Source: Escherichia phage FL12
Reading direction: 5' to 3' (one strand)
Sequence record: PP400786
DNA: 64,000 bases
In this document: piece after piece, positions 3,517 through 62,178 of the stretch
How the letters are laid out: the number at the start of each line of letters is the position of its first letter
How positions within the stretch are numbered: the first letter of the stretch is position 1
Program-made: the position numbers and the translations under genes
Notes under the pieces: model-generated
The model's input: only the letters and a program-made list of their open reading frames with translations
Database searches by the model: none
Told to the model about the DNA's origin: nothing

Positions 3517-4107
3517 CCGTTATGTTCGATTGAGCTCGCTAATTCTCAACCCGTTCTCTTATGAACTGCTACATATTACTATGCAGACCAGACTATATCA
3601 CAATCCCAGAGGGATTCTCCCCATTTCGAGTCGCTTGACCCTACGTCCGAAGACTAGTCGTTGAACCTTGCTTTGCAATTGTCGCCGTGCCATCGTTTAT
3701 ATGTTGATGGTGATAAATCTTTCTTATCACAATATGGACAATTCAATTGAATTCTATTTGGATTTAATTTACATCTGTCATTATGTTTTAGATAAAATCC
3801 AGGACCTTTACCAATGTGCCCGCAGAAATCACATGTGATTTCTTTTTGTGCAGGATGGGTCCCGTTCTTAACCATTTCTAATGTTTTTGCTGATGTTCTT
3901 TTCTTATGGTCCCATCAGAATCTTTAAGTAGGTCCGTCAGCATCTATCCAAATTTTTCTATAGTTCAATTGTGCATCCTCTTAAAAGTATAATCATATTA
4001 TACTAATTAAAGGTGCAAGCAAAACCTTGGCTGCTAGTTTTCCTATAAAGGACTTTCCAGCAATTAAAGGAGTTTTCGATAAACGTTACCGTTTAAAGGC
4101 GCATTTT
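3517..4107 (-). mobile_element. group I intron in nrdB (about 591 nt)
   Basis: Exon 1 frame stops right after ...FYVSFA; exon 2 resumes about 590 nt downstream; inferred junction GCGU|GUACC gives ...VSFACTFNF...; intron ends in G. Confidence 0.6.
3654..3875 (-). CDS. degenerate intron endonuclease ORF (I-TevIII-like, zinc finger)
   Basis: 73-aa ORF inside the intron with CDFCGH...CPYCDKK zinc-finger motifs; too short for a full HNH enzyme. Confidence 0.5.
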   Translation of the reverse strand: MVKNGTHPAQKEITCDFCGHIGKGPGFYLKHNDRCKLNPNRIQLNCPYCDKKDLSPSTYKRWHGDNCKARFND

Positions 4108-4783
4108 ACGCAAAAGATACATAAAAACGAATAGCTTCTAAGGCATTAATAACGTGCAAACAGAGGTAAAGAGATTTCATTAAAGCACGTTTAGCTTCGG
4201 CTTCTTGTTTAATAGCTCGGTTTAAACGAAAGTCGGCATCAGGAGATTCTTTAGCTAGTTCTACAAATTCTTTAGCATTTTCCCATTCACGGGTTTTAAC
4301 CAAGACATCATCATAATAACGTCCAATGGATTCAGCTCGTTTCATAATAGCTTCATCTAATACAATCTCATCAAATACCTTTGACGGATCAGTATAAAGA
4401 TTTCGCATGATATGAGTATATGAACGACTGTGAATAGTTTCACTAAAAGTCCATGTAGCAACCCATGTATCTAATGAAGGATCTGAAAGCAATGGCATAA
4501 GTACCGCAGATGGTGCACGACCTTGAATGCTATCAAGTAACGATTGATATTTAAGATTATTAGTAAAAATATTTTGTTGATACTGAGGAAGTTTATTAAA
4601 TTGAGTAGCATCCATCATCAAGTTAACTTCTTCAGGACGCCAGAAAAACGAGAGCTGACGTTCAATAAGTTCTTCAAATACCCTATGTCGTTGAATATCA
4701 TAACGTGCAATTCCAAGACCAGACCCAAAAAACATGGGTTCTGTTAAAACATCGACCTGTTTAGTATTAAAAACTGTACTCAT
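4108..4783 (-). CDS. nrdB: ribonucleotide reductase beta subunit, exon 1
   Basis: MSTVFNTKQVDVL... ending ...ALEAIRFYVSFA, the conserved R2 radical-site region. Confidence 0.8.
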
Positions 4784-6375
4784 TATTTTGTCCTGTAAAC
4801 TAAATTTCCACAGTCCCAGATTCTTCTAAGACCATTTGCATAACAATTTTCTACTTCAGTTATTGTATCATCATAATTTTTAAGCTTGTTTTTAAGCTTA
4901 TGTTTCATATAGCTTGAGCGGTGAAATACCTCTCCTTTATCGACGTACCAATAACACGGCTCAGAGATATGACTAAATTCCATGACAGAGTCATAAACAT
5001 TTGATAATGTACTGCACCATCTTCGATTGCCATAAGATAGACAATTAATTCCTTTTAATAATTTTGAGACTCCTCCTACAACACAAACCCCCAATTTTGA
5101 ACACATCCTTAAAAGTTCATCACCTGAGCTATATCTAGATTTACCGATAGAAATAATTTGAACTAACTCATTATTGTAATAAAGTCCTTTATACGTATGA
5201 GCTCCCGAGCAAAATCCTTGAAGATGATTCTTATTAATAAATTCTTTTGCCTCATCCTTATTAACAAAACGCGCTTTGCATTTTCGGGCTGGTATTCTTT
5301 CTGATAATCCTAATTTATGCTTTATAATGGATTTCCAGATCTCTCTTTTTGTATCATCAATCCATTCATTTTCGAAGATGTGAAGTAATTGAATTCCTTG
5401 TGCTTCACACATCTCTGTCTTCATCAAATGATAAGTTTCTTTAATTTTATCTGTTTCCTTTGACCCGCTAGAATGCCAATAAATTCCATCGTATTCTATA
5501 GCCAATTTTTTCTCAGGAATGTAAATATCTAATTCATACGGAGGAATAATTTTTCTAGTTTCTACGCAATCAAATCCTAGATCTAAAATGAATTGCTCTA
5601 TAGAACTTTGAGTATAATGAACGTCAATTAGTCCTTTGGATGAAAGAGCTCTATAAGCCGTCATCCGAGAACAATTTGCTAATTGTTGTAGTTCTTCTAT
5701 AGAAATTTTGTAATTGATTTTATCTAGTATATCATGATTAATATGACCGTTATTTTTAATAGATTTTCCTATAGATGAATATAACGATGCCTTATATTCT
5801 TCAGTCCAATTTAATTTGGTCTTCTTAGATTTTTCGCGAGATTTTTTAGAATGCAGAATATCAACTGATTTACCGTTTTCTATAACTTTTCTCGCTTCTT
5901 TCACACTTTCTAATTGTGAATTATGCGTTACCCCATATCGTTCAATTAAAGTTTTTCTATTTTTATTTCTTGAAATTTTTTGATGAGTTGTTCCATATTT
6001 TTCTAAAGAATTTTTGTGTTGAAGTTCAGACAAATATTTTTTATATTTTTCTTTTCCACCAAAATTTGTATCACGGCTTTGAGTTCTCTTATCCGCGAAA
6101 AATATCCCTGCGCAGGATTTACTACATGTTGCTGGAAATACACGTTTCTTTGCTGTTTTCAGAGAAATGAAATTTCCACAAACTGCACATTTTAGATCGT
6201 TAATGTCAATGCCTTCCATAATTTGGAACACATTGAGCTTAAAATCTATTCCATCAGTTAGAAGAGCTTTATCTTCTTCTGTTAGTCTAGATTTAAGTTT
6301 TTCTTCTCCAAATGGAAGAAACTTTCCGTTTTTGTATATATTATCAAACATAGCGTTATTCTTAGTTAACCACAT
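4783..6375 (-). CDS. large nuclease-like protein of unknown type (zinc ribbon, basic repeats, Vsr/DUF559-like motif)
   Basis: 530-aa ORF between nrdA and nrdB; CAVCGNF...CSKSCAG; repeated KYGTTHQ / RYGVTHNSQ; ...LAIEYDGIYWHS...GIQLLHIFENEW. Confidence 0.55.
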   Translation of the reverse strand: MWLTKNNAMFDNIYKNGKFLPFGEEKLKSRLTEEDKALLTDGIDFKLNVFQIMEGIDINDLKCAVCGNFISLKTAKKRVFPATCSKSCAGIFFADKRTQSRDTNFGGKEKYKKYLSELQHKNSLEKYGTTHQKISRNKNRKTLIERYGVTHNSQLESVKEARKVIENGKSVDILHSKKSREKSKKTKLNWTEEYKASLYSSIGKSIKNNGHINHDILDKINYKISIEELQQLANCSRMTAYRALSSKGLIDVHYTQSSIEQFILDLGFDCVETRKIIPPYELDIYIPEKKLAIEYDGIYWHSSGSKETDKIKETYHLMKTEMCEAQGIQLLHIFENEWIDDTKREIWKSIIKHKLGLSERIPARKCKARFVNKDEAKEFINKNHLQGFCSGAHTYKGLYYNNELVQIISIGKSRYSSGDELLRMCSKLGVCVVGGVSKLLKGINCLSYGNRRWCSTLSNVYDSVMEFSHISEPCYWYVDKGEVFHRSSYMKHKLKNKLKNYDDTITEVENCYANGLRRIWDCGNLVYRTK

Positions 6376-6391
6376 CCTTGTGGTAATTATA

Positions 6392-7381
6392 TCATAATTT
6401 ACAGGATGAACAATCTTCAGCTTTTGGAGTTTCTATTTCATAATCATCAGTACCAGAACCATCACGGGTATTATGATAATAGAAATTTTTAATGCCATAA
6501 TACCATCCGTATAGCATGTCATCAATCATTATTGACATTGGAACCTTTCCTTTTGGAAAAATCTGCGGGTCATAATATGTATTCGCTGAAGCTGATTGAC
6601 ATACCCATTTCAGCATAATAGCTACCTGCGTAAGATAAGGTTTATTACCTTTCTTAGCTAATTTCCATGTATAGTCGTAAAGGTCTATGTTATGCTCAAT
6701 ATTGGGCACGACTTGATTAAAGGAGCCCTCTTTTGATTCTTTAACAGAGACTGGTCCACGTGGAGGCTCGATACCGTTTGTACTGTTAGAAACTTGGGAA
6801 GATGACTCACATGGCATAAGTGCTGATAATGTGCTATTACGGATGCCAAAGAGCTTAAGGTCTTCCCGCAGCGCCGACCAATCACAAACGTATTTTGGAG
6901 CTGCGATTTGGTCAATCTTTTTATTGTACCAGTCGATAGGTAATTCGCCTCGAGACCAACGAGTGTCTGAATAATATTCGCAAGGTCCTTTTTCTTTGGC
7001 GAGCTTAATGGATGCTTTAATGAGTCCATACTGTAATCTCTCAAATAGTTCATGTGTTAAATCGTTAGCATCTTCATAAGAAGCAAAGTTACTTGCCAGC
7101 CAAGCTGCATAGTTGGTAACACCTACACCAAGATTTCGACGCTTTTTAGCTTTTTCTGCTTCAGGAACTGGATATCCTTGGTAATCCAAAAGATTATCAA
7201 GAGCACGAACTTGAACTTCTGCCAATTCATTAATTTTATCTTGGTCTTGCCAGTCAAAATTATCCAGTACGAATGCGCTAAGGGTACAAAGCCCCACTTC
7301 TCCCTTGTTTTCAATAACTTCTATTGTAGTATACTCATCATCTTCGTAAAATTCATCTACAAATTCATAATCAATATTCAT
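6392..7381 (-). CDS. nrdA: ribonucleotide reductase alpha subunit, C-terminal fragment
   Basis: ...GLCTLSAF...LSALMPCESSSQ...NTRDGSG...CSSCKL, matching the C-terminal third of class Ia R1. Confidence 0.85.
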   Translation of the reverse strand: MNIDYEFVDEFYEDDEYTTIEVIENKGEVGLCTLSAFVLDNFDWQDQDKINELAEVQVRALDNLLDYQGYPVPEAEKAKKRRNLGVGVTNYAAWLASNFASYEDANDLTHELFERLQYGLIKASIKLAKEKGPCEYYSDTRWSRGELPIDWYNKKIDQIAAPKYVCDWSALREDLKLFGIRNSTLSALMPCESSSQVSNSTNGIEPPRGPVSVKESKEGSFNQVVPNIEHNIDLYDYTWKLAKKGNKPYLTQVAIMLKWVCQSASANTYYDPQIFPKGKVPMSIMIDDMLYGWYYGIKNFYYHNTRDGSGTDDYEIETPKAEDCSSCKL

Positions 7382-8081
7382 TTAATTCTTTTACCTTTTT
7401 TCTAGTAATTCCTAAAGCTTTAGATGCTCGATGTATTGATTGATATTCTATACCGTTTATTTTTACAGCAATTAAGTTATGGGGTTTTAATCCCTTTGGA
7501 TGAGGTTTACTGACGAAAACTAAATTATCAAGCTCTGAAATCTTATCCAATTTCTTACACTTAAATCCTTTGTGATGCGACCGTTTACCTTTACAAACGG
7601 CTGACATTGCAGATGGATTTAAATTATGCTCTTTACAAAATTCGTTAAGACCTCGATGAATTTCCTCATGACCATCAGGAAATGTAAACACCCAAGATGT
7701 TTGAAGTCGAGATTTAACTTCTGGAGACATAGGAATACCTTTGTTCCAAGCTGGTTTGCCTTTATTATTTTCAGATACAGAAATAGCCAATTTTCTTCTA
7801 AGCCACCCATGGCGTTTATTGGTGTTCTTTCGTTCAATATTATCTTTAGAATAAACACACATCATATTAGCGGCAAATATCAATTTATGATTATTTGGAT
7901 ATATCTTTACTAATAATTGATGAGCTATGTAATGCTCTTCTGGCGTCAAATCTACCAGGTTTTCCTTTGTATCAGAACCACCAATACACAGAGGTATAAT
8001 ATGGTGTGATTCGGTATAGCAATCTAATTTTCTATTCTTAGCTTTAGAAATAAGGTTATTGTAAATTTTAAAATAATCCAT
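7371..8081 (-). CDS. HNH homing endonuclease inserted within nrdA
   Basis: 236-aa ORF with ESHHIIPLCIGGSDTKENLVDLTPEEHYIAH motif; stop overlaps the start region of the downstream nrdA fragment. Confidence 0.8.
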   Translation of the reverse strand: MDYFKIYNNLISKAKNRKLDCYTESHHIIPLCIGGSDTKENLVDLTPEEHYIAHQLLVKIYPNNHKLIFAANMMCVYSKDNIERKNTNKRHGWLRRKLAISVSENNKGKPAWNKGIPMSPEVKSRLQTSWVFTFPDGHEEIHRGLNEFCKEHNLNPSAMSAVCKGKRSHHKGFKCKKLDKISELDNLVFVSKPHPKGLKPHNLIAVKINGIEYQSIHRASKALGITRKKVKELNEY

Positions 8082-8126
8082 AACTTTTCCTCTTGTTATG
8101 GATTATTTATTAACGGTCTGTGTACT

Positions 8127-9560
8127 TTATTTGCTTTGAATTATACCGTCAGGATTAGCTTCATAAAACTTAGCTACATCCGACTTCTTAATTTTGATTA
8201 AACGGGTTTGTTGGCTATTCACATCATTTGTTGGAATAGCAATTTCACAACACAAGTTACTCTGACGAATAGGCGCCTTTTCGCGAATAAACGGAGTGTA
8301 GTTATTCGTATTATCAATGAACTGTACATAAATCCTTGCTGTTCCTGAACGTTCAGTCATGAGCAATTCAAATAGTTCACGGGCTTTAATACGCTTTTTA
8401 CGAATATTAGGGTCTTTTTCTGCTGCTTCGTATAATTCACGGAAACGGTCTTGGTCTTTAAAATAAGAATAATAAAGCTCGCCACCCATTTCATGTGGAC
8501 TGAACAAAGTAATGTAATCGTTCTTTCCAAAACGTTCCATCATCAAATCATTCAGCTGAACACCATAATCCATATGACGAATGCGGTTTTCTTCTACGCC
8601 TTTGTTATTTTTCAAAACGAGAAGATTTTCAACTTCCAAATGCCAAATAGGATAATAAGCAGTAGCAGCGCCGCCACGAATTCCACCCTGTGAACATGAT
8701 TTAACTGCAGTCTGAAAATGTTTCCAAAAAGGAATAACACCAGTATGGCGTACTTCACCCATGCCAATCTTAGAACCTTCGGCACGAATCATACCAACGT
8801 TAATACCAATTCCAGCGCGTTTAGAGATATATTCAACAATTGAAGCGGAAGCCTTATTGATAGACTTCAATGAATCTCCTGCCTCAATAACAACACATGA
8901 ACTAAACTGTCGAGTAGGAGTACGACAACCAGCCATAATAGGAGTTGGCAGTGAAATTTGTCGGGTTGATACTGCTTCATAAAAACGAATAACGTGTTTT
9001 AGTCTATCAACAGGTTCATCTTGATGCAGTGCCATTCCAATAGTCATAAATGCAAACTGTGGAGTTTCATAAATTTGACCAGTGGTTTTATCTTTAACTA
9101 GATATTTTTCTTTTAATTGCATCGCCCCGGAATAAGTAAATTCCATATCCCGCTCATGCTTAATTTTTGATTCTAAAAATGTAATTTCTTCTGCTGAATA
9201 TTTTGACAATAATTCAGGGTCGTATTTACCTTCATTTACACAGTAAGAAATATGGTCAATAAATGAACGTGGTTCATACTGCCCATAAACATGCTTACGA
9301 AGAGCGAACATTAGACAACGTGCAGCTACATATTGATAATCAGGCTCTTCAACCGAAATAGAATTCGCAGCGGCCTTAATGACAATAGTCTGAATATCAT
9401 CAGTTGTCATTCCATCACGGAGATAAGATTTAATATTTTCATATAATTCATAAGGATCTACTGATGTTCCTTCAGCTGCCCAAGATAAAACTTTAATAAT
9501 TTTTTGTGGGTCAAAGCTCTGAGAAACACCACTACTTTTGATAACATTAATTAATTGCAT
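8127..9560 (-). CDS. nrdA: ribonucleotide reductase alpha subunit, N-terminal fragment
   Basis: ATP-cone N-terminus; ...MAGCRTPTRQFSSCVVIE... and ...SNLCCEIAIPTNDVN then 26 non-conserved residues and stop. Confidence 0.85.
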   Translation of the reverse strand: MQLINVIKSSGVSQSFDPQKIIKVLSWAAEGTSVDPYELYENIKSYLRDGMTTDDIQTIVIKAAANSISVEEPDYQYVAARCLMFALRKHVYGQYEPRSFIDHISYCVNEGKYDPELLSKYSAEEITFLESKIKHERDMEFTYSGAMQLKEKYLVKDKTTGQIYETPQFAFMTIGMALHQDEPVDRLKHVIRFYEAVSTRQISLPTPIMAGCRTPTRQFSSCVVIEAGDSLKSINKASASIVEYISKRAGIGINVGMIRAEGSKIGMGEVRHTGVIPFWKHFQTAVKSCSQGGIRGGAATAYYPIWHLEVENLLVLKNNKGVEENRIRHMDYGVQLNDLMMERFGKNDYITLFSPHEMGGELYYSYFKDQDRFRELYEAAEKDPNIRKKRIKARELFELLMTERSGTARIYVQFIDNTNNYTPFIREKAPIRQSNLCCEIAIPTNDVNSQQTRLIKIKKSDVAKFYEANPDGIIQSK

Positions 9561-11808: not shown

Positions 11809-12051
11809 TCAAACAGACTTTTTCACAATTTTCCAATCAGCTTTAAACTGTTCAACGTCAGAATGGTAAATCCAGAATCCTGCGCTTTCTCCATCCTCAT
11901 AAAGAGGGCATCCATCACATTCATCTTCCCATCCCATATCACGCAAAAGACGTTCAGTTTTTTCAACAAGTTCAGAATCTTTACCGATGATATTAAAATA
12001 CCATTTACCCCTAACTTCTGAATCTTTAATGCTCTGACGTTGTAATCTCAT
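11809..12051 (-). CDS. hypothetical protein
   Basis: Track ORF 11809..12087; shortened to an internal Met because an early promoter overlaps the 5' extension. Confidence 0.4.
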   Translation of the reverse strand: MRLQRQSIKDSEVRGKWYFNIIGKDSELVEKTERLLRDMGWEDECDGCPLYEDGESAGFWIYHSDVEQFKADWKIVKKSV

Positions 12052-12076
12052 TTTTATTCTCCTTAGTTGATAGGGT

Positions 12077-12107
12077 AATAGTATCACACTACTACCCTAC
12101 TGTAAAC
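12077..12107 (-). promoter_or_regulatory. early sigma70-type promoter
   Basis: Minus strand reads GTTTACA, 16-nt spacer, TACTATT; plus-strand tgtaaac at 12101-12107. Confidence 0.45.
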
Positions 12108-12487
12108 TACTTTTTGAAAGTTTTTCGTAAAAGTTCAATGATTTCATCTACATTGTTTTCATCTACAATGCAGTGAATTTTTGTTACGCCAGAAACTGTG
12201 TCTTCGGTTTCATCTTCTTCAGAAGTCGGTTCTTTATACTCACGAAAACAATGAAATTCGTCTTCGCAAATTTCTAAAAGTCTATCTTTGAGATAAAAAT
12301 GCTTTCCATTTGCGCATTCAATGTGTTTTACTGCTTTGTATCCATTGGCGACGGAAACTTCTTTAACTTCAAACCATCCGCCATTATCTCGAATAGCTTT
12401 AACTATTGATGAATTAGAACGTGGACTATAATTAATAAATGTATCAATAAGTCTTGGAACAAGTTCATACTTTCTACCGGTATACAT
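12107..12487 (-). CDS. hypothetical protein
   Basis: 126-aa ORF. Confidence 0.5.
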   Translation of the reverse strand: MYTGRKYELVPRLIDTFINYSPRSNSSIVKAIRDNGGWFEVKEVSVANGYKAVKHIECANGKHFYLKDRLLEICEDEFHCFREYKEPTSEEDETEDTVSGVTKIHCIVDENNVDEIIELLRKTFKK

Positions 12488-12531: not shown

Positions 12532-12783
12532 TTACTGCTCAATAAATCCAGTGTAAAATTCTACATCTTCAGCATCCATACCGTCACAATATTCATTAAC
12601 CATAAATTGTTTAAGACGATTTAAAGGACCTTCAATAACAACTGAAACATTGCAGTTAGGATCATTTAGTGCGCTTGTAATACGGAGTTCAGGATAACGA
12701 TTACGAATAATTTCTTCAATATATTCAAAATCAACAACATCAATATCAATTTTAGCCATGTTATTTTCCTCTTTAATCATCAT
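12532..12783 (-). CDS. hypothetical protein
   Basis: 83-aa acidic ORF just downstream of an early promoter. Confidence 0.5.
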
Positions 12784-12802
12784 CAGCAGTATTGCCGATA
12801 GT

Positions 12803-12835
12803 TGTATAGTACCATAGTCCTTGTTGTATGTAAAC
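12803..12835 (-). promoter_or_regulatory. early promoter
   Basis: Minus strand GTTTACA, about 17 nt, TACTATAC; part of repeated hairpin-promoter cassette. Confidence 0.5.
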
Positions 12836-12859
12836 TGTTTTGTGAAAAAATTTTGAAAT

Positions 12860-12885
12860 AAAAAAGGGGACCTCTATGGTCCCCA
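12860..12885 (-). terminator. intrinsic terminator after gene 32
   Basis: Minus-strand hairpin GGGGACCAUAGAGGUCCCC followed by U6. Confidence 0.6.
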
Positions 12886-12906
12886 ATTAATTAGTAATAT
12901 AATCTA

Positions 12907-13815
12907 TTAAAGGTCATTCAAAAGGTCATCCAGGTCCGTGTCATCAGCACTAGATGAACTACCAGAGCTTGAGCTCATAAAATCATCTTCAGTTTTTGTA
13001 TTGAAGTCATCAACATTGAATGCATCCAAATCATCAGCAACTTTATCAGCTTTCTTAGCAGCAGTTGCTGCGGCACCACCCATCACAGCAGTTCCCATAA
13101 CTTGACTGAACTTAGTGCTCAGTTCTTCGAACGATTTGAATTTATCTTTAGAAGTCATTTCAGAAAGGTCAACCATTTGTTCGAACAGTTCTTTCTGGAA
13201 AGATTCGTCATCAATGTTTGGAATCGCAGATTGATTCAGGAATTTAGATTCGTCGTAGTTACTAAATCCGGAAACTTGTTTAACTTTCAGTACAAAGTTA
13301 GCACCTTCCCACGGACAAGTTACATCAACCGGAGTTTCACCCATTTCAACATCAACTGCAATCATCGCGTTGATTTTATCCCAGATTTTCTTACCGAAAC
13401 GGTATTTAAATACTTTACCTTCATTTTCTGGAGCAGCTGGGTCTTTTACAACAAGAATATTAGCCCAGTAAGAAGTTTTACGTTTAACAAGACTGTACTC
13501 TTTATTGTCAGTGTTGTACAGATCATTTTTACTGATGTATTGACATACTGGGCAAGAATCGTAATCACCGTGGGTAGATGAACATGTTTCAATATACCAT
13601 TTACCATTTTTCTTGAAACCGTGATTTACAAGAATTGCGAATGGTGCTTGTTCATCATTTTTAGACGGAAGAAAACGAATTACTGCTTGACCGTTACCCG
13701 CATTGTCGAGTTTCAGTTTCCACTCGCCTTTATCTTCAGAAGAAAAACCACCTTTATTTCCAGCCAGTTTAGCCATTTGTGCAGCGAGTTCAGCAGTAGA
13801 TTTACGTTTAAACAT
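12907..13815 (-). CDS. 32: single-stranded DNA-binding protein
   Basis: 302-aa ORF with Zn site ...[14 protein letters not shown]... and acidic Ser/Asp-rich C-terminus. Confidence 0.9.
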
Positions 13816-16180: not shown

Positions 16181-19100
16181 ATGGCCGAGATTAAAAGAAA
16201 GTTCAGAGCAGAAGATGGTCTGGACGCAGGTGGTGATAAAATAATCAACGTAGCTTTAGCTGATCGTACCGTAGGAACTGACGGTGTTAACGTTGATTAC
16301 CTAATTCAAGAAAACACAGTTCAACAATACGATCCAACTCGTGGATATTTAAAAGATTTTGTAATCATTTATGATAACCGCTTTTGGGCTGCTATAAATG
16401 ATATTCCAAAACCGGCAGGAGCTTTTAATAGCGGACGCTGGAGAGCATTACGTACCGATGCTAACTGGATTACAGTCTCATCTGGTTCATATCAATTAAA
16501 ATCAGGTGAAGCTATTTCGGTTAACACTGCAGCTGGTAATGGTATTACATTTACTTTACCATCTACTCCAATTGACGGTGATACTATCGTTCTCCAAGAC
16601 ATTGGAGGAAAACCTGGAGTTAATCAAGTTTTAATTGTAGCTCCAGTGCAAAGTATTGTAAACTTCAGAGGCGAGCAAGTACGTTCAGTACTAATGACTC
16701 ATCCAAAGTCACAGTTAGTTTTAATTTTTAGTAATCGTCTGTGGCAAATGTATGTAGCTGATTATAGTAGAGAAGCTGTAGTTGTAACACCAGCGAATAC
16801 TTATCAAGCGCAATCCAACGATTTTATCGTACGTAGATTTACTTCTGCTGCACCGATAAATATTAAACTTCCGAGATTTGCTAATCATGGCGATATTATT
16901 AATTTCGTTGATTTAGATAAACTGAATCCACTTTATCATACAATTGTTACTACATACGATGAAACGACTTCAGTACAAGAAGTTGGAACTCATTCCATTG
17001 AAGGCCGTACATCTATTGACGGTTTCTTGATGTATGATGATAATGAGAAATTGTGGAGATTGTTTGACGGGGATAGTAAAGCGCGTTTACGCATTATAAC
17101 GACTAATTCTAATATTCGTCCAAATGAAGAAGTTATGGTATTTGGTGCGAATAACGGAACAACTCAAACAATTGAGCTTAAGCTTCCAACTAATATTTCT
17201 GTTGGTGATACTGTTAAAATTTCCATGAATTACATGAGAAAAGGACAAACAGTTAAAATCAAAGCTGCTGATGAAGATAAAATTGCTTCTTCAGTTCAAT
17301 TGCTGCAATTCCCAAAACGCTCAGAATATCCGCCTGAAGCTGAGTGGGTTACAGTCCAAGAATTAGTTTTTAATGGTGAAACTAATTATGTTCCAGTTTT
17401 AGAGCTTGCTTATATAGAAGATTCTGATGGAAAATACTGGGTTGTACAGCAAAACGTTCCAACTGTAGAAAGAGTAGATTCTTTAAATGATTCTACTAGA
17501 GCAAGATTAGGCGTAATTGCTTTAGCTACACAAGCTCAAGCAAATGTCGATTTAGAAAATTCTCCACAAAAAGAATTAGCAATTACTCCAGAAACGTTAG
17601 CTAATCGCACTGCTACTGAAACTCGCAGAGGTATTGCAAGAATAGCAACTACTGCTCAAGTGAATCAGAACACCACATTCTCTTTTGCAGATGACCTTAT
17701 CATTACTCCTAAAAAGCTGAATGAAAGAACTGCTACAGAAACTCGTAGAGGTGTCGCAGAAATTGCTACGCAGCAAGAAACTAATACAGGTACTGATGAT
17801 ACTACAATCATTACTCCTAAAAAGCTTCAAGCTCGTCAAGGTTCTGAATCATTATCTGGTATTGTAACTTTTGTATCTACCGCAGGTGCTACTCCAGCTT
17901 CTAGCCGTGAATTAAATGGTACGAATGTTTATAATAAAAACACTAATAATTTAGTTGTTTCACCTAAAGCTTTGGATCAGTATAAAGCTACGCCTACTCA
18001 ACAGGGTGCAGTAATTTTAGCAGTTGAAAGTGAAGTAATTGCTGGACAAAGTCAGCAAGGATGGGCAAATGCTGTTGTAACGCCAGAAACGTTACATAAA
18101 AAGACATCAACTGATGGAAGAATTGGTTTAATTGAAATTGCTACGCAAAGTGAAGTTAATACAGGAACTGATTATACTCGTGCAGTCACTCCTAAAACTT
18201 TAAATGACCGTAGAGCAACTGAAAGTTTAAGTGGTATAGCTGAAATTGCTACACAAGTTGAATTCGACGCAGGCGTCGACGATACTCGTATCTCTACACC
18301 ATTAAAAATTAAAACCAGATTTAATAGTACTGATCGTACTTCTGTTGTTGCTCTATCTGGATTAGTTGAATCAGGAACTCTCTGGGACCATTATACACTT
18401 AATATTCTTGAAGCAAATGAGACACAGCGTGGTACACTTCGTGTGGCTACACAAGTTGAAGCTGCTGCAGGAACATTAGATAATGTTTTAATAACTCCTA
18501 AAAAGCTTTTAGGTACTAAATCTACCGAATCGCAAGAGGGTGTTATTAAAGTTGCAACTCAGTCTGAAGCTGTGGCTGGAACGTCAGCAAATACTGCTAT
18601 ATCTCCAAAAAATTTAAAATGGATTGTGCAGAGTGAACCTTCTTGGAGAGCAACTACTGCGGTAAGAGGGTTTGTTAAAACTTCATCTGGTTCAATTACA
18701 TTCGTTGGTAATGATACAGTCGGTTCTACCCAAGATTTAGAACTATATGAGAAAAATAGCTATGCAGTATCACCATATGAATTAAACCGTGTATTAGCAA
18801 ATTATTTGCCGTTAAAAGCAAAAGCTGCTGATACAAATTTATTGGATGGTCTAGATTCATCTCAGTTCATTCGTAGGGATATTGCACAGACGGTTAATGG
18901 TTCACTAACCTTAACCCAGCAAACGAATCTGAGTGCCCCTCTTGTATCATCTAGTACTGCTACGTTTGGTGGATCAGTTTCGGCAAATAGTACATTAACT
19001 ATTTCTAATACTGGAACGGCAACTCGTCTGATTTTTGAGAAAGGACCTCAAACTGGAACTAACCCAGCACAGACGATGACTATCAGAGTTTGGGGAAATC

Positions 19101-29066: not shown

Positions 29067-29702
29067 TCACAGTTCAGATGCTACAGTGATTACGGCTTCA
29101 ATGTTTTCTGCCGAGCGTTTAATGTCAAGATACACATTACCGTTTTTAGCGATTTTACATGACATTCCGATGTCAGTAAATTTCTGAATATGATGTTCCA
29201 TCATTTTGTATCCAAAAATTCGCATATTTCCATTGTTGTTAATTTCAAAATTACGAATTCCGTTAGTGCGTTTTTCTAAAATAGCAAGATAATTACTACG
29301 ATAAATTTCAACCTTTTTAAGAACAAATCCATTTTTATCTAAAAGTTTTAACACGAAGTCTTTATCTTCTTCCATATCGGAAGTAATCTCGCGAGCTTTA
29401 CGAGTTGCTCGTTTTTTCAGTAGTTCCGGAGCATTTTCCTGTGCGTATAAAGTAGCTGCATTTGAAATAATATCCTGGGCTTCACCTGTAATGATTAATC
29501 CATCACCAGATTTCTCCACCAGGCCTTTTTTGATCAATACCCCAATATTACTATTAACTACTGCGTTACCTAAATCTGGATGCACCTCACGAACTTCTGC
29601 AGCTGTAATGAAATCTTTCTTAGCAATGGTAATTAAAATCACAGCAGTTTTTTCATTCAGAACATCGTTAGAAGCTTTGATGATGTAAGTTACTTTAGAC
29701 AT
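29067..29702 (-). CDS. motA: middle-transcription activator MotA
   Basis: 211-aa ORF MSKVTYIIKASNDVLNEKTAVILITIAKKDF... Confidence 0.9.
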   Translation of the reverse strand: MSKVTYIIKASNDVLNEKTAVILITIAKKDFITAAEVREVHPDLGNAVVNSNIGVLIKKGLVEKSGDGLIITGEAQDIISNAATLYAQENAPELLKKRATRKAREITSDMEEDKDFVLKLLDKNGFVLKKVEIYRSNYLAILEKRTNGIRNFEINNNGNMRIFGYKMMEHHIQKFTDIGMSCKIAKNGNVYLDIKRSAENIEAVITVASEL

Positions 29703-29741
29703 TTTCTAATCTCCGTAATTCTGTATCAGTAGTTGATAGTT

Positions 29742-29773
29742 GTATAGTACCACAGTATGCTTTGGTTGTAAAC
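29742..29773 (-). promoter_or_regulatory. early promoter upstream of motA
   Basis: Minus strand GTTTACA, 17 nt, TACTATAC; part of repeated cassette. Confidence 0.5.
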
Positions 29774-29805
29774 CGTTTTGTGAAAAAAATTTTTGAAATA
29801 AAAAA

Positions 29806-29825
29806 GGGAGAGCCGAGGCTCTCCC
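29806..29825 (-). terminator. intrinsic terminator
   Basis: Hairpin GGGAGAGCC-UCGG-CUCUCCC followed on the minus strand by U6. Confidence 0.55.
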
Positions 29826-29830
29826 TAAAA

Positions 29831-32757: not shown

Positions 32758-32857
32758 AGTAAGCGTTTAATACATCAATCATTAAAACGATTGGGAATAT
32801 ACTCAAAACTACTAGTATTATAACTACATTCCATATAGCTTTAACAATCTTTTTCAT
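32744..32857 (-). CDS. small membrane protein (about 37 aa)
   Basis: MKKIVKAIWNVVIILVVLSIFPIVL...; the longer track ORF 32744..32992 is overextended across an early promoter. Confidence 0.4.
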   Translation of the reverse strand: MKKIVKAIWNVVIILVVLSIFPIVLMIDVLNAYFGFM

Positions 32858-32883
32858 TTTCTGTTCCTCCGTAGTTGATAGGG

Positions 32884-32915
32884 TAATAATACCACAGAGG
32901 AACAGTCTTGTAAAC
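32884..32915 (-). promoter_or_regulatory. early promoter
   Basis: Minus strand GTTTACA, 18 nt, TATTATTA. Confidence 0.5.
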
Positions 32916-33100
32916 AACTTTTTTAAAAATATTCGTAATAAATGTGAATACCAATCACTACTGCCGAAACTTGCGCAACCCACCACGCACAAGCAATAAG
33001 TACAGAATTCAAAATCTTCATAATAACCTCATCACAAAAGTAAATGTTAAACAAATTAATGGAATACTAATTAACCAAACAAAACACCACCATAATGAAC

Positions 33101-33364
33101 TCATAGTTCAATCTCAGCGATTTTCATTTCATTACTATTAATAGCCGCTTTAAGACTATCTGAAAGAATTACATTCCAGTGGTCATTCATATGACCATTA
33201 ACTAAGCGTGTAATTTCTTCAGGAGTTGAAAAATAAGGCGTATCAGACTCCCAATGCGATAGTCCCAAGCGAGTATAAATCATACCTTCATCATCGCTAG
33301 AATATTCAACTGACACAAACTCATCAGTTATTTTATGTTTAGCGTAATAAAATTTAAATTTCAT
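33101..33364 (-). CDS. hypothetical protein
   Basis: 87-aa ORF with GGAGG Shine-Dalgarno, just downstream of an early promoter. Confidence 0.5.
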   Translation of the reverse strand: MKFKFYYAKHKITDEFVSVEYSSDDEGMIYTRLGLSHWESDTPYFSTPEEITRLVNGHMNDHWNVILSDSLKAAINSNEMKIAEIEL

Positions 33365-33388
33365 TTTTACTCCTCCGTAGCTGATAGT

Positions 33389-33420
33389 TGTATAGTACCA
33401 CAGTCCTTGTGGTTTGTAAA
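33389..33420 (-). promoter_or_regulatory. early promoter
   Basis: Minus strand GTTTACA, 17 nt, TACTATAC. Confidence 0.5.
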
Positions 33421-33436
33421 CCGTTTTGTGAAATTT

Positions 33437-33994
33437 TTAAATGGAAAGATACCATCCGTTGTAGTTGCTTTTTCTTACAACTTTACGAAGGTCTTCTCTA
33501 TCACCGATGAACTTCGGAGTGTACTGGATGACACCTGGATGAATTTCTTTAGTGTTGAATATAATTATACAGTCAGCGACTTGGTGATTCAGAATGGGCC
33601 CTAGATTTATTCCAGAACCATATGGATACTCTCCGCTGCATCCGGTTGTTACCGAAATCCAACGTGAGTCAGTTTGATGTGTTTTGACTTCTACACGAAG
33701 CCCACAGTATTTTGGATGCGCCAGTACATCCCATGCGTACGTATACGGGTCATTAACATCCTCTTGGCCTTTGTTAACATACCCACTCAGCCAATCTGCT
33801 ACAAAAAACTCTGCATACACAGCGATACGGCATCTTTCGATAACTTCTGCTTTATCCTGGTTCGGGTTTTGTTTTAAAGAGTATCTTGCTGTATCAGCAA
33901 TTTTGACCTTCATTTCACTAGTCAAGTCACTGTTCGATAGGGTAAATGACGGAATCTGAAATAGTCTCTGCAAACCCGGATTCGTTTTCTGCAT
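33437..33994 (-). CDS. denB: probable endonuclease IV
   Basis: 185-aa ORF at the T4 denB position between ndd cluster and rIIB; assigned from size and synteny. Confidence 0.55.
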   Translation of the reverse strand: MQKTNPGLQRLFQIPSFTLSNSDLTSEMKVKIADTARYSLKQNPNQDKAEVIERCRIAVYAEFFVADWLSGYVNKGQEDVNDPYTYAWDVLAHPKYCGLRVEVKTHQTDSRWISVTTGCSGEYPYGSGINLGPILNHQVADCIIIFNTKEIHPGVIQYTPKFIGDREDLRKVVRKSNYNGWYLSI

Positions 33995-41927: not shown

Positions 41928-42097
41928 AATTTCCTCATTAATTGAACATTGGAGCGATGCGTTTCAGAAGAGTATCAGCGCACCTTTAACGAATTATTCA
42001 TTTTATTCTCCAAGTTGTTTTCTGTATCAGTAGTTGATATTGATATAGTACCATAATCAACTACTGATGTATATAGTTTTATGAAAAAATTTAAACT

Positions 42098-42589
42098 TTA
42101 TGCATAGCGAGCTTTGCTGTAGTGTTTAATCCAACTTTCAGGAATGACTTTGTATGTTCCTAAAAATACCGCGTTGTATAACTTAACGCCATCTTCTACC
42201 CATTGATCAGTAATGTATGCACACATAGCGCGAGTACGGTTAACAACACCTTCCTCACCTTCAGTAAATTCAAACTCATAAGGAGCAACGAACTTGATAG
42301 CTTGACCGAGTTTCCACTTAAAGTCTACACCTACATGCGAAGTATCAATCGTTTCAATTCCTTTAGCAGGAACAGCTTTCAAAAACGCAGATTCAAGAAA
42401 TTTCGCGCGAACATAACCAAACTGAGGTTTAGACTTTCCATCTTTAGGAATGATACGAACTTTTACTTCAGAATCTTCATCTTTAACGCCGTGTTTAAGC
42501 TGAATGCTTACAATTTCGACCAATTTTCCTGCTGCTTTAGAACGGGATTTATCAGATACACGAGCAATTTCACCAATATTAATAATCAT
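42098..42589 (-). CDS. hypothetical protein, tandem paralog A
   Basis: 163-aa ORF; C-terminal motif ...AYITDQWVEDGVKLYNAVF shared with neighbour. Confidence 0.5.
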   Translation of the reverse strand: MIINIGEIARVSDKSRSKAAGKLVEIVSIQLKHGVKDEDSEVKVRIIPKDGKSKPQFGYVRAKFLESAFLKAVPAKGIETIDTSHVGVDFKWKLGQAIKFVAPYEFEFTEGEEGVVNRTRAMCAYITDQWVEDGVKLYNAVFLGTYKVIPESWIKHYSKARYA

Positions 42590-53622: not shown

Positions 53623-53787
53623 TTACTCTTCTTTTTCTTTAGATTCCTCTTTTTTCTTTTTAGGAATCTGCTCAGGACCTTTATTTACTACAGCGCCTGA
53701 CGTTGTTCCAGTAGAGATATTTTCAGGATTACCACCTGAATCTCCAGCGACCATATCTTCTTTGATAAATTCTTTATATGTTTTCAT
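53623..53787 (-). CDS. small hypothetical protein (61.1 position)
   Basis: About 54-aa ORF MKTYKEFIKEDMVAGDSGGNPENI...; below track cutoff. Confidence 0.4.
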   Translation of the reverse strand: MKTYKEFIKEDMVAGDSGGNPENISTGTTSGAVVNKGPEQIPKKKKEESKEKEE

Positions 53788-53788
53788 A

Positions 53789-54138
53789 TTAACCTCTATT
53801 CATAAAAGCATTAAAAATTTGGTCATCAATAGATGGCGCAGTAATATTTTCTGCATCATTTAGCAAATCATTAATTTCATCAGATAGCATAACACATGTA
53901 CCTTTATTTCCTGTAATTGTTACTGCACAATTACGAACGTTTTCTTTATCAAATTTTAGGTTAATATTTTCGTAGTGAAAATCCTTTAATGCCGAATATA
54001 TCTTTAAAATGAAATTGTCTTTTACTACAATAAACCCAACCTCACTATTAAAACGTGGTTCATGGAAACTGTAATAAACCTTTTCATCTATAAAATCGTA
54101 TGAAATTTTTCCATTTTTAAATATGAAAATTCAGAACT
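53789..54138 (-). pseudogene. frameshifted, truncated paralog of the upstream 210-aa gene
   Basis: Frame encoding ...FIVVKDNFILK...SIDDQIFNAFMNRG has no usable start; an ATG in another frame stops after 18 codons; last about 40 nt nearly identical to 54141-54190. Confidence 0.5.
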
Positions 54139-54145
54139 ATACATA

Positions 54146-54778
54146 TTAATCTCTATTCATAAAAGCATTAAAAATTTGATCGTCAATAGAAACTTTTACT
54201 TTAGGCTGTTCTTCAAACGGTAATTCATATCCACATATTACAATTTTGTGATCGATACCAAAATACACAGAAGCAATATTATTAATATTATTTTCAGTGA
54301 AATCTAAATCAACATCAATATCTTTTTGACTAACGCTCAAAGGATAATTAATACGAATAATTCGATTATCTTTAACAAAGATTCCACCGACATACTCTGT
54401 GCTGCGTTTAAAGTTTACACGTTTCCTAAATGAAAAATATTCAGGTTCTTTATGGGCTCGACTCATAGGGCTTAAAGTGTATTCCGAATATGAAATATCA
54501 AATCCTACACCTTCAATATGAGCCAAAGTGTCATGATTAAACCAATTATAATCGTATGCCAAATCCATTAAATTGTAATATGTGAAAGGCACCGGATTAA
54601 CATCATATGTTGTACCTTTAAAATCTGCCCAGGCAACGATTTCGTTATCTTTAACAATTACAAAAATTGTGCCAATAAGATATCCACGGTTATTTTCATC
54701 AGGCGTTATATTATAACATTGTGCATCAGGAAATTTACCGTATTTAAACGGTGGATTTTTGTGCATATAATAAATCAT
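54146..54778 (-). CDS. hypothetical protein (61.2 position)
   Basis: 210-aa ORF ending ...SIDDQIFNAFMNRD. Confidence 0.55.
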   Translation of the reverse strand: MIYYMHKNPPFKYGKFPDAQCYNITPDENNRGYLIGTIFVIVKDNEIVAWADFKGTTYDVNPVPFTYYNLMDLAYDYNWFNHDTLAHIEGVGFDISYSEYTLSPMSRAHKEPEYFSFRKRVNFKRSTEYVGGIFVKDNRIIRINYPLSVSQKDIDVDLDFTENNINNIASVYFGIDHKIVICGYELPFEEQPKVKVSIDDQIFNAFMNRD

Positions 54779-61651: not shown

Positions 61652-62032
61652 TCACTTAGTCAAATTTTTTACACATGAATTATAAGAATTCACTACATAC
61701 TCCATCGGAGCAGTTTTACCTGTGCGCCATTGGTAATTATTAGCCCAATTTGCCCAAAGTTCAGCGCAGTAGTTTTCAATTTTTTCTTCGCGTGTAATTA
61801 CATCAGAATTACGATATGCTTGAGCAGATTCATCTGGACGAATAGCTTCGTCAAAATTCGCCTGCATTTGTTCTACTGTCTGTTTTGGAGCTTCTTTATA
61901 ACACTTGACATTAGGATTATAAAATTTGCTTGAACAGTTTACAATTTTTCCTACATCAGACTGATTTACTACCGGTCCTTGAGCTACACAACCAGCAAGA
62001 CCTAATGCAATAACCAAAATAGCGATTTTCAT
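61652..62032 (-). CDS. putative lipoprotein (imm.1 position)
   Basis: MKIAILVIALGLAGC... signal peptide with lipobox; internal Met of track ORF 61652..62044. Confidence 0.5.
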   Translation of the reverse strand: MKIAILVIALGLAGCVAQGPVVNQSDVGKIVNCSSKFYNPNVKCYKEAPKQTVEQMQANFDEAIRPDESAQAYRNSDVITREEKIENYCAELWANWANNYQWRTGKTAPMEYVVNSYNSCVKNLTK

Positions 62033-62064
62033 TTCATTCTCCAAATCCGTATCAGTTGATAGTT

Positions 62065-62096
62065 GTATAGTACTATAGAAGAGCAGGGATGTAAAC
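62065..62096 (-). promoter_or_regulatory. early promoter
   Basis: Minus strand GTTTACA, 17 nt, TACTATAC. Confidence 0.5.
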
Positions 62097-62178
62097 AGTT
62101 ATGTGAAAAAATTTTTAGGGAATCCAAAGGGTCCAGAATCATCTCTTTTTCATAAGTATAGATTTATATTACTTGTAT

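Follow-up and report, generated by a model that had tools for sequence, protein, structure and literature searches.

The site under study lies between gene 32 and frd.3 in a 64,000-nucleotide stretch of Escherichia phage FL12 (record PP400786), which we refer to as the window. By local BLAST, the window is Tequatrovirus DNA, ~95% identical to and collinear with a T4 span from ~134.9 kb to ~29 kb that crosses the end of the T4 record, with the early genes on the minus strand. A 1-kb probe around the site matched 705 phage records at 90-98% identity, mostly T4-like phages of Escherichia, Shigella and Yersinia. The surrounding open reading frames correspond to gp59, gp32, frd.3, frd.2, frd.1, frd and td. 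The original prediction, made from the sequence alone, had described a terminator hairpin after gene 32 followed by a promoter cassette on the minus strand, and all coordinates and strings that it gave are present. Downstream of the hairpin come a T-run, AAAATTTTTTCACAAAAC, GTTTACA (with its G at 12835) and TACTAT at 12806-12811. The site is composed as follows:

12866-12884, minus strand: intrinsic terminator hairpin of gene 32, GGGGACC-AUAGA-GGUCCCC and then a U-run (dG -14.8, z -2.9), with an orthologue in T4.
12836-12865, minus strand: T-run and AT-rich, UP-element-like block TTTTTTATTTCAAAATTTTTTCACAAAACA, the first homologous segment of the repeat by alignment and repeat search.
12806-12835, minus strand: core of the frd.3 early promoter, with GTTTACA (-35), a 17-nt spacer, and TGG plus TACTAT (-10).
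12757-12805, minus strand: conserved initial transcribed sequence ACAACTATC, 5'UTR, Shine-Dalgarno (SD) sequence GAGG at 12768-12771, and frd.3 ATG at 12757-12759.

The frd.3 transcript is predicted to start near 12799, and the TTTTTTATTTCAAAATTTTTTCACAAAACA block, by count, closely matches the UP-element consensus of E. coli. The orthologous site in T4 is 93% identical, with nearly all differences falling within the promoter spacer: the hairpin differs by one loop base, and the spacer haplotype in the window is of the ndd.6 type, unlike that of T4. Little else distinguishes this site from the classical T4 early promoter and gene 32 terminator. Rfam 15 gave no matches anywhere in the window at the gathering score, and only a chance-level match (E = 0.64) in 12700-12950 at E <= 1. 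A strict 28-nt pattern joining the gene 32 terminator to the UP block was found in one IMG/VR contig only, and the 17-mer GGTACTATACAACTATC occurs in 34 copies in about ten T4-like IMG/VR contigs.

Several observations concern the gene 32 hairpin elsewhere. Three plasmid records each carry two copies of the T4 version of the terminator fragment, which ends exactly at a HindIII site in the T4 spacer. These inserts are engineered-looking and consistent with the Omega interposon; our literature search gave no supporting text for a link between the Omega interposon and the T4 gene 32 terminator. In phage teqhal the hairpin reads GGGGACCTCTAGGGTCCCT, versus GGGGACCCTAGAGGTCCCC in T4, so that this imperfect palindrome appears to have been inverted in place. 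In phage SP21535 (L038 ~640-770, corresponding to 12817-12932 of the window), where gene 32 is unannotated, 114 bp are missing, a stretch that takes in the final codons of gene 32, the terminator, the UP block and the frd.3 -35; the deletion could be real, at a CCT microrepeat, or an assembly artefact.

The comparison with T4 also brought out differences away from this site. On the minus strand at 6392-9560, nrdA is split into a 477-aa N-terminal ORF (8127-9560) and a 329-aa C-terminal ORF (6392-7381), with a 236-aa ORF that carries an HNH-like motif (7371-8081) between them. The interruption amounts to 936 bp, versus 32 bp in T4, where nrdA is uninterrupted, and none of the group I intron models searched matched it. 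Next to it, at 4783-6375 (minus strand), a 530-aa ORF takes the place of the T4 nrdB.1/mobE segment (1593 bp versus 682 bp in T4). The td intron with I-TevI, segG, segF and the T4 mobA/gene 60 arrangement are absent or different in the FL12 window. In the window itself, several families of short direct repeats (30-45 nt, at spacings of 108-681 nt) lie on the plus strand at 17585-18507 within the proximal tail-fibre gene 34, and are presumably the known internal peptide repeats.

A near-identical unit had been reported upstream of motA, and the two copies indeed share 82% identity across ~140 aligned columns. The motA copy is the orthologue of the T4 motA promoter, has the G of its GTTTAC at 29773, and consists of two parts:

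29805-29826, minus strand: motA.1 intrinsic terminator hairpin AGGGAGAGCC UC GGCUCUCCCU and U-run (dG -19.5, z -5.4).
29700-29804, minus strand: motA early-promoter cassette, with T-run/UP block, -35 at 29767-29772 and -10 TACTAT at 29744-29749; its 3' part holds the initial transcribed sequence ACAACTATCAACTACTGATACAG, SD GGAG at 29711-29714 and motA ATG at 29700-29702.

We considered whether the hairpin stems of these two long copies are themselves homologous and rejected this, as they share no sequence beyond G/C richness. Since the gene 32 and motA.1 stems are unrelated in sequence, the homology of the repeat starts at the T-run.

Five shorter copies had been proposed as well, and each lies where it was predicted, on the minus strand:

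33362-33456, minus strand: Family-A cassette downstream of denB, with -35 at 33415-33420, -10 at 33392-33397 and SD GGAG at 33373-33376.
32855-32938, minus strand: Family-B cassette upstream of ndd.4, with -35 at 32909-32914, -10 TATTAT at 32886-32891 and ATG at 32855-32857.
62030-62131, minus strand: Family-A cassette between gene 43 and imm.1, with -35 at 62090-62095 and -10 at 62067-62072.
12049-12130, minus strand: Family-B cassette at the frd.2 end, driving frd.1, with -35 at 12101-12106 and -10 at 12078-12083.
41999-42109, minus strand: Family-A variant between motB and cef, with a weak -35, ATATACA, at 42068-42073 and -10 at 42045-42050.

Two of these carry no significant hairpin. One is the denB-downstream cassette (33421), whose ATG at 33362-33364 opens an 87-aa ORF (33101-33364); the other is the imm.1 cassette (62096), with SD GGAG at 62039-62042 and ATG at 62030-62032. 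The frd.1 cassette (12107) has SD GGAG at 12059-12062 and ATG at 12049-12051, and a 12-14-bp stem (12071-12082 with 12088-12099; dG -17.8, z -4.1) overlaps its -10. At ndd.4 (32915), a 15-bp stem with arms at 32891-32905 and 32861-32875 surrounds the -10 and pairs the spacer with the SD GGAGG (dG -23.2, z -6.4); its three stem substitutions all preserve pairing. The motB/cef copy (42074) contains a 20-nt inverted repeat (42026-42045 and 42049-42068) centred on the -10 (dG -20.2, z -5.6), followed by SD GGAG at 42008-42011 and an ATG at 41999-42001. From this ATG, 8 aa are left of an ORF that has its full 89 aa in CJY920 and teqhal. Because the T4 GenBank record carries no promoter features, we set T4 promoter positions with our own weight matrix, which placed the counterparts of the seven sites at ~146.9 kb (frd.3), 163.7 kb (motA), 167.1, 166.8, 146.1, 6.6 and 27.1 kb.

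These copies also emerged from an unbiased search, in which the top dispersed repeat of the window comprises five copies of 78 nt at 12793-12870, 29731-29808, 33379-33456, 42032-42109 and 62054-62131. We term these Family A (promoters 12835, 29773, 33421, 42074 and 62096); Family B (12107 and 32915) corresponds to a second subfamily, 12059-12130 plus 32867-32938, which ranked third. Two halves of the unit, 24-25 nt long, each match four sites at <=3 mismatches, where none are expected from 100 dinucleotide shuffles. A position-weight scan identified 18 early promoters in the window, all on the minus strand, and applying the weight matrix to both strands at a much lower threshold added no site to these 18. 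By T4 orthology they precede alc, frd.1, frd.3, rnh, asiA, motA, ndd.4, the 87-aa ORF/ndd.6, rIIA.1, cef, motB, motB.2, srd, modB, mrh.2, sp, dmd and imm.1, and the seven named copies make up the two most repeated subfamilies among them. Outside the hexamers, ungapped flank identity is 56-76% within the subfamilies, versus 25-45% among the other early promoters, so the similarity of the copies exceeds what a generic -35/-10 would give. In other records, the 85-nt motA unit occurs at 3905 places in 567 phage records, almost all of them Tequatrovirus and usually without annotation, with seven to nine copies per complete genome.

The blocks that the copies have in common are the T-run plus AAAAATTTTTTCACAAAAC, the TGn/-10, a start region ACAACTATCAACTAC and GGAG-type ribosome sites. 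By our own count, we take the T-run plus AAAAATTTTTTCACAAAAC to be near the E. coli UP-element consensus. The ribosome sites of several cassettes read GGAGAATAAAA, which fits the consensus for strong RegB cleavage, GG*AGRAYARAA (PMC3014915). Selection for promoter strength accounts for some of this similarity, since the positions conserved among the copies are those of functional promoter parts. In its full form this argument would make the copies independent strong early promoters, alike through convergent or purifying selection on an extended consensus and unrelated to recombination or modular shuffling. It gains from the coincidence of the conserved blocks with known RNA-polymerase contact regions, and from published work in which T4 early promoters combine UP, -35, TGn and -10 elements with further shared consensus outside the hexamers (Hinton 2010; PMC2988021). 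Against it, extended similarity is missing from the window's 11 other early promoters, and we return to the argument below.

Comparison with published elements places the FL12 repeats in a family that is already known. Comeau et al (2014) extended the term PeSL (promoter-early-stem-loop) to phages PST and T4, with the promoter consensus TTTACW-N17-TAYWAT and examples in the ndd region (PMC4122927); the ndd region of the window is that of their Fig. 6A. Six of the seven copies have GTTTACA, a 17-nt spacer and TACTAT or TATTAT, with the 42074 copy reading ATATACA. All seven have AAAAATTTTTTCACAAAAC or TTTTTAAAAAAGT upstream as an AT-rich region, and in all seven GGAG or GAGG lies 5-9 nt before the ATG, giving an SD and start codon at the 3' end. 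A stem-loop is present at five of the seven, as an upstream terminator in two and as a hairpin enclosing the -10 in three, and is missing from 33421 and 62096 (z near 0); weak or degraded stems are tolerated in the family definition. As in PST and T4, phages of the same genus, the elements adjoin small variable ORFs and lie near indels, with breakpoints at six of the seven cassettes in comparisons with five genomes. The FL12 repeats thus match the T4-phage early-promoter cassettes of PMC4122927 in every sequence-level feature and in their association with indels. They differ in the position of the stem-loop, which lies just upstream of the promoter in that description; here three of the 18 promoters have it upstream and eight around the -10. 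Exchange of spacer haplotypes between loci, described below, is an addition to it. The original prediction had called the cassettes PeSL-like and mobile; the first designation holds, and the second overstates the case, as they occupy the same orthologous loci in all genomes examined.

A second comparison is with the PeSLs of the original definition. Arbiol et al (2010) described the PeSLs of RB49 and phi1 as strong early promoters with stem-loops that flank ORFans and mediate their shuffling (PMC2839356). Those elements are likewise composites of promoter and stem-loop, proposed as linkers for homologous recombination, and their stem-loop mostly lies between -35 and -10 or overlaps the -10, as it does at eight promoters here. 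They differ in that RB49 has a near-perfect TTGACA/TATAAT promoter and polyG/polyC stems, and their authors called the T-even elements analogues rather than homologues (PMC2839356).

To relate the cassettes to module boundaries, as the original prediction had proposed, we compared the window with five genomes, T4 and ~50 kb each of CJY920, LF73P1, teqhal and SP21535. The proposal was borne out for six of the seven named copies, which lie at an indel breakpoint in at least one of these five relatives. Out of 50 unique indel or replacement events, seven fall at named cassettes, with 0.96 expected (P ~0.0007); for all 18 cassettes the count is eight, versus 2.4 expected for random positions (P ~0.008). 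Among the repeated cassettes, six out of seven have a breakpoint; among the unique early promoters, one out of 11 does (hypergeometric P ~0.002). This comparison controls for location because both sets are intergenic promoters. The remaining 42 events lie away from cassettes, and many are homing-endonuclease or tail-fibre events. One segment away from any early promoter, 308 bp long and missing from T4 and CJY920, is bracketed in the window by a 49-nt direct repeat (94% identical; 53785-53833 and 54142-54190) of which those two phages have one copy only; it looks like an ORF gained or lost via recombination between the repeats.

Junctions at the cassettes fall at the 3' edge or at SD-ATG repeats, and several consist of 8-nt ATG-proximal repeats and not of cassette-to-cassette homology. 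Immediately 3' of the 33421 cassette, a 240-bp stretch of the 87-aa ORF has been lost from T4, with AAATGAAA repeats at its two ends. Behind the 12107 cassette T4 is longer by a micro-ORF of 84 bp, which has a CTAA(T)GGAG site on either side. The 89-aa ORF that follows the 42074 cassette has lost 205 bp in the window as well as in T4. A 78-aa lipoprotein-like ORF separates imm.1 from the 62096 cassette in LF73P1 and teqhal, and the repeat at its junction is ATGAAAAT. In LF73P1, an insert that consists of a 75-aa ORF and a further early promoter separates the motA cassette from its gene, and 23 nt of the cassette's 3' segment are directly repeated on either side of it. In CJY920 a promoter plus 84-aa ORF is inserted at the sp promoter (55129), joined at the -35. 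A "half cassette" lacking T-run, UP block and -35 is found at motA in SP21535 and one IMG/VR contig.

Two of the ORFs involved merit a separate description. The 87-aa ORF at 33101-33364 (minus strand; MKFKFYYAKHK...), directly 3' of the 33421 cassette, is intact here and in several relatives, and in T4 eight codons are left of it (MKIAEIEL), overlapping the start of ndd.6. The T4 micro-ORF (L002 16060-16143, corresponding to 12049-12066 of the window) is unannotated and encodes a hydrophobic 24-codon product, MFAPYIMAAVMLVCLYLLIKAC, between the frd.1 promoter and frd.1.

Such insertions could mean that the cassettes are truly mobile, as in the strong form of the Arbiol et al (2010) model, in which mini-circles of promoter and ORF excise between neighbouring cassettes and re-integrate at others, possibly aided by a dedicated protein. 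The motA insert of LF73P1, an ORF with its own promoter between direct repeats, and the CJY920 insert joined at the -35 both resemble the expected products; cassette pairs 506 and 728 bp apart bracket small-ORF groups in the window; and mini-circles have been detected experimentally in RB49/phi1 (PMC2839356). Three points weigh on the other side. No recombinase is implicated; no cassette was found at a new locus among the genomes compared, all of which carry them at the same orthologous loci; and several indels end at an SD-ATG microrepeat within an ORF, which suggests slippage or short-homology deletion. We consider mobility of this kind improbable. What moves are adjacent ORFs and short internal segments, and the cassettes are recombination substrates, not transposing elements.

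The exchange of internal segments is seen most clearly at frd.3. Across nine phages, identity is 92-97% over ~130 flanking columns, and a 14-nt block of the spacer diverges by 50-71% compared with 3-8% around it (Fisher P from 2e-4 to 2e-9). This block exists as three to four unrelated haplotypes among the nine phages, and each haplotype matches another locus at 16-18 of 18 positions: that of the window at the denB-downstream cassette (16/18), that of T4 at a locus outside the window in three contigs (18/18), that of LF73P1 at a locus outside the window (16/18), and that of a further contig (L018) at the imm.1 locus (L016; 18/18). Variants of the 5'UTR are also common to different loci, and the unique early promoters have one spacer per locus in all genomes compared. 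That different loci have spacer haplotypes in common indicates gene conversion between copies of the repeated cassette. The same data bear on the reading of the copies as independent promoters shaped by selection alone. The constancy of their positions, at orthologous loci throughout the genomes compared, fits that reading, but the reading does not accommodate discrete haplotypes that recur at different loci in a spacer that the polymerase does not contact, a strongly divergent block in an otherwise conserved frd.3 region, or the concentration of breakpoints at repeated over unique promoters. We therefore regard it as very unlikely, and favour cassettes that exchange sequence by recombination.

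The original prediction had also treated a terminator hairpin plus early promoter as the unit of the cassette. This applies to two of the seven copies, those at gene 32 and motA.1; the other five have no upstream terminator. Weak terminators hidden upstream of these five were considered and rejected, as candidate structures scored no better than shuffles (z -0.3 to +0.8). Among all 18 promoters, intrinsic terminators abut the UP block at 12835 (z -2.9), 29773 (z -5.4) and 51083 (z -2.5).

A different structure, absent from the original prediction, came from inverted-repeat search and folding: the -10 box lies within a strong stem-loop at copies 32915, 12107 and 42074. Folding the segment from -35 to start codon for each of the 18 promoters revealed such hairpins at eight, those of alc, frd.1, ndd.4, cef, motB, motB.2, modB and dmd (z -3.3 to -6.6); in four of them (alc, ndd.4, motB.2 and modB) the Shine-Dalgarno sequence is part of the 3' arm. 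Among six genomes, the stems contain nine distinct substitutions, all of which keep pairing through G-U, with no pair broken. At motB.2, more distant phages (70-77% protein identity) have a different spacer and 5'UTR, yet UUCUCCUCAUG pairs with CAUGAGGAGAA, once more as a hairpin between spacer and SD. For this hairpin we used independent folds and abandoned a covariation count, because in the MAFFT alignment the helix register differs by three columns between phage groups and the pairs are not positionally homologous.

These inverted repeats are centred on the promoter itself, and Arbiol et al speculated that PeSL stems may be targets of a DNA-binding protein (PMC2839356), so the stem-loops might instead act as DNA cruciforms or protein-binding palindromes, in promoter regulation or recombination. 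This we find highly doubtful: all nine stem substitutions are transitions that pair only if G-U is allowed, which makes sense for RNA and not for DNA. Moreover, the four hairpins whose 3' arm is the Shine-Dalgarno have the layout of the translational hairpins of T4 e, soc, 49 and I-TevI, in which the ribosome-binding site is sequestered on read-through RNA, the promoter lies inside the hairpin, and the shorter transcript from that internal promoter is translatable (PMC3014915). The internal promoter in those T4 genes is late (or middle), in contrast to the early sigma-70 promoter of the hairpins described here, whose own spacer forms the 5' arm. Our observations on the hairpins that enclose the -10 point to a selected RNA structure.

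Overall, these elements are very probably composite early-expression cassettes that double as recombination patches for the gain and loss of small ORFs. The sequence anatomy, the repeat, the stability and conservation of the hairpins, the clustered breakpoints and the shared haplotypes are direct observations. Promoter and terminator activity we infer from T4 orthology and the literature, with indirect support also from the T4 gene 32 terminator fragment in the plasmid inserts; RegB cleavage, SD sequestration and the recombination mechanism are predicted. In such a cassette, an intrinsic terminator, in some copies only, would end the upstream transcript. A T-run would merge into a near-consensus UP element, and GTTTACA, a 17-nt spacer, and TGn plus TA(C/T)TAT would recruit host sigma-70 RNA polymerase immediately post-infection. 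A conserved initial transcribed sequence would follow, and then a GGAG-type SD, typical of early mRNAs that RegB can cleave, and a start codon that opens a small early gene. Given their close similarity, the copies may serve the recombination system of the phage as short homology patches: gene conversion would swap short internal segments (spacer, 5'UTR) between loci, and small ORFs would be inserted or deleted at the cassette 3' edge. In place of an upstream terminator, about half of the early promoters would have as their stem-loop an RNA hairpin around the -10, often with the spacer paired to the SD that follows. Read-through transcripts from upstream would have the ribosome site hidden in this hairpin, and a transcript started inside the loop, without the 5' arm, would be free for translation.

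The core phenomenon has been published for T4 and PST, so our result mainly confirms and refines known biology. It adds a census of 18 promoters, a repeated subfamily that is prone to breakpoints and exchanges haplotypes, and promoter-embedded RNA hairpins that pair with the SD. For T4 itself, the literature searched describes neither haplotype exchange nor insulation by an early promoter within a hairpin. We hold the evidence to be evenly balanced on the fuller proposal, in which the seven to nine cassettes of Tequatrovirus evolve in concert, the repeated subfamily, and not early promoters at large, nucleates small-ORF gain and loss, and hairpins insulate translation so that it proceeds from the gene's own promoter only. 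If hairpin insulation is true, each small gene would be silent on read-through RNA, which would explain why promoter and ribosome site travel as one unit. For the window, the analysis provides annotation of 18 early transcription units, predicted recombination hot spots and a testable idea of translational insulation. More broadly, the cassettes would serve as "linker" sequences for the exchange of small accessory genes among T4-like phages, with expression around them left undisturbed, one proposed mechanism of modular phage evolution and host adaptation.
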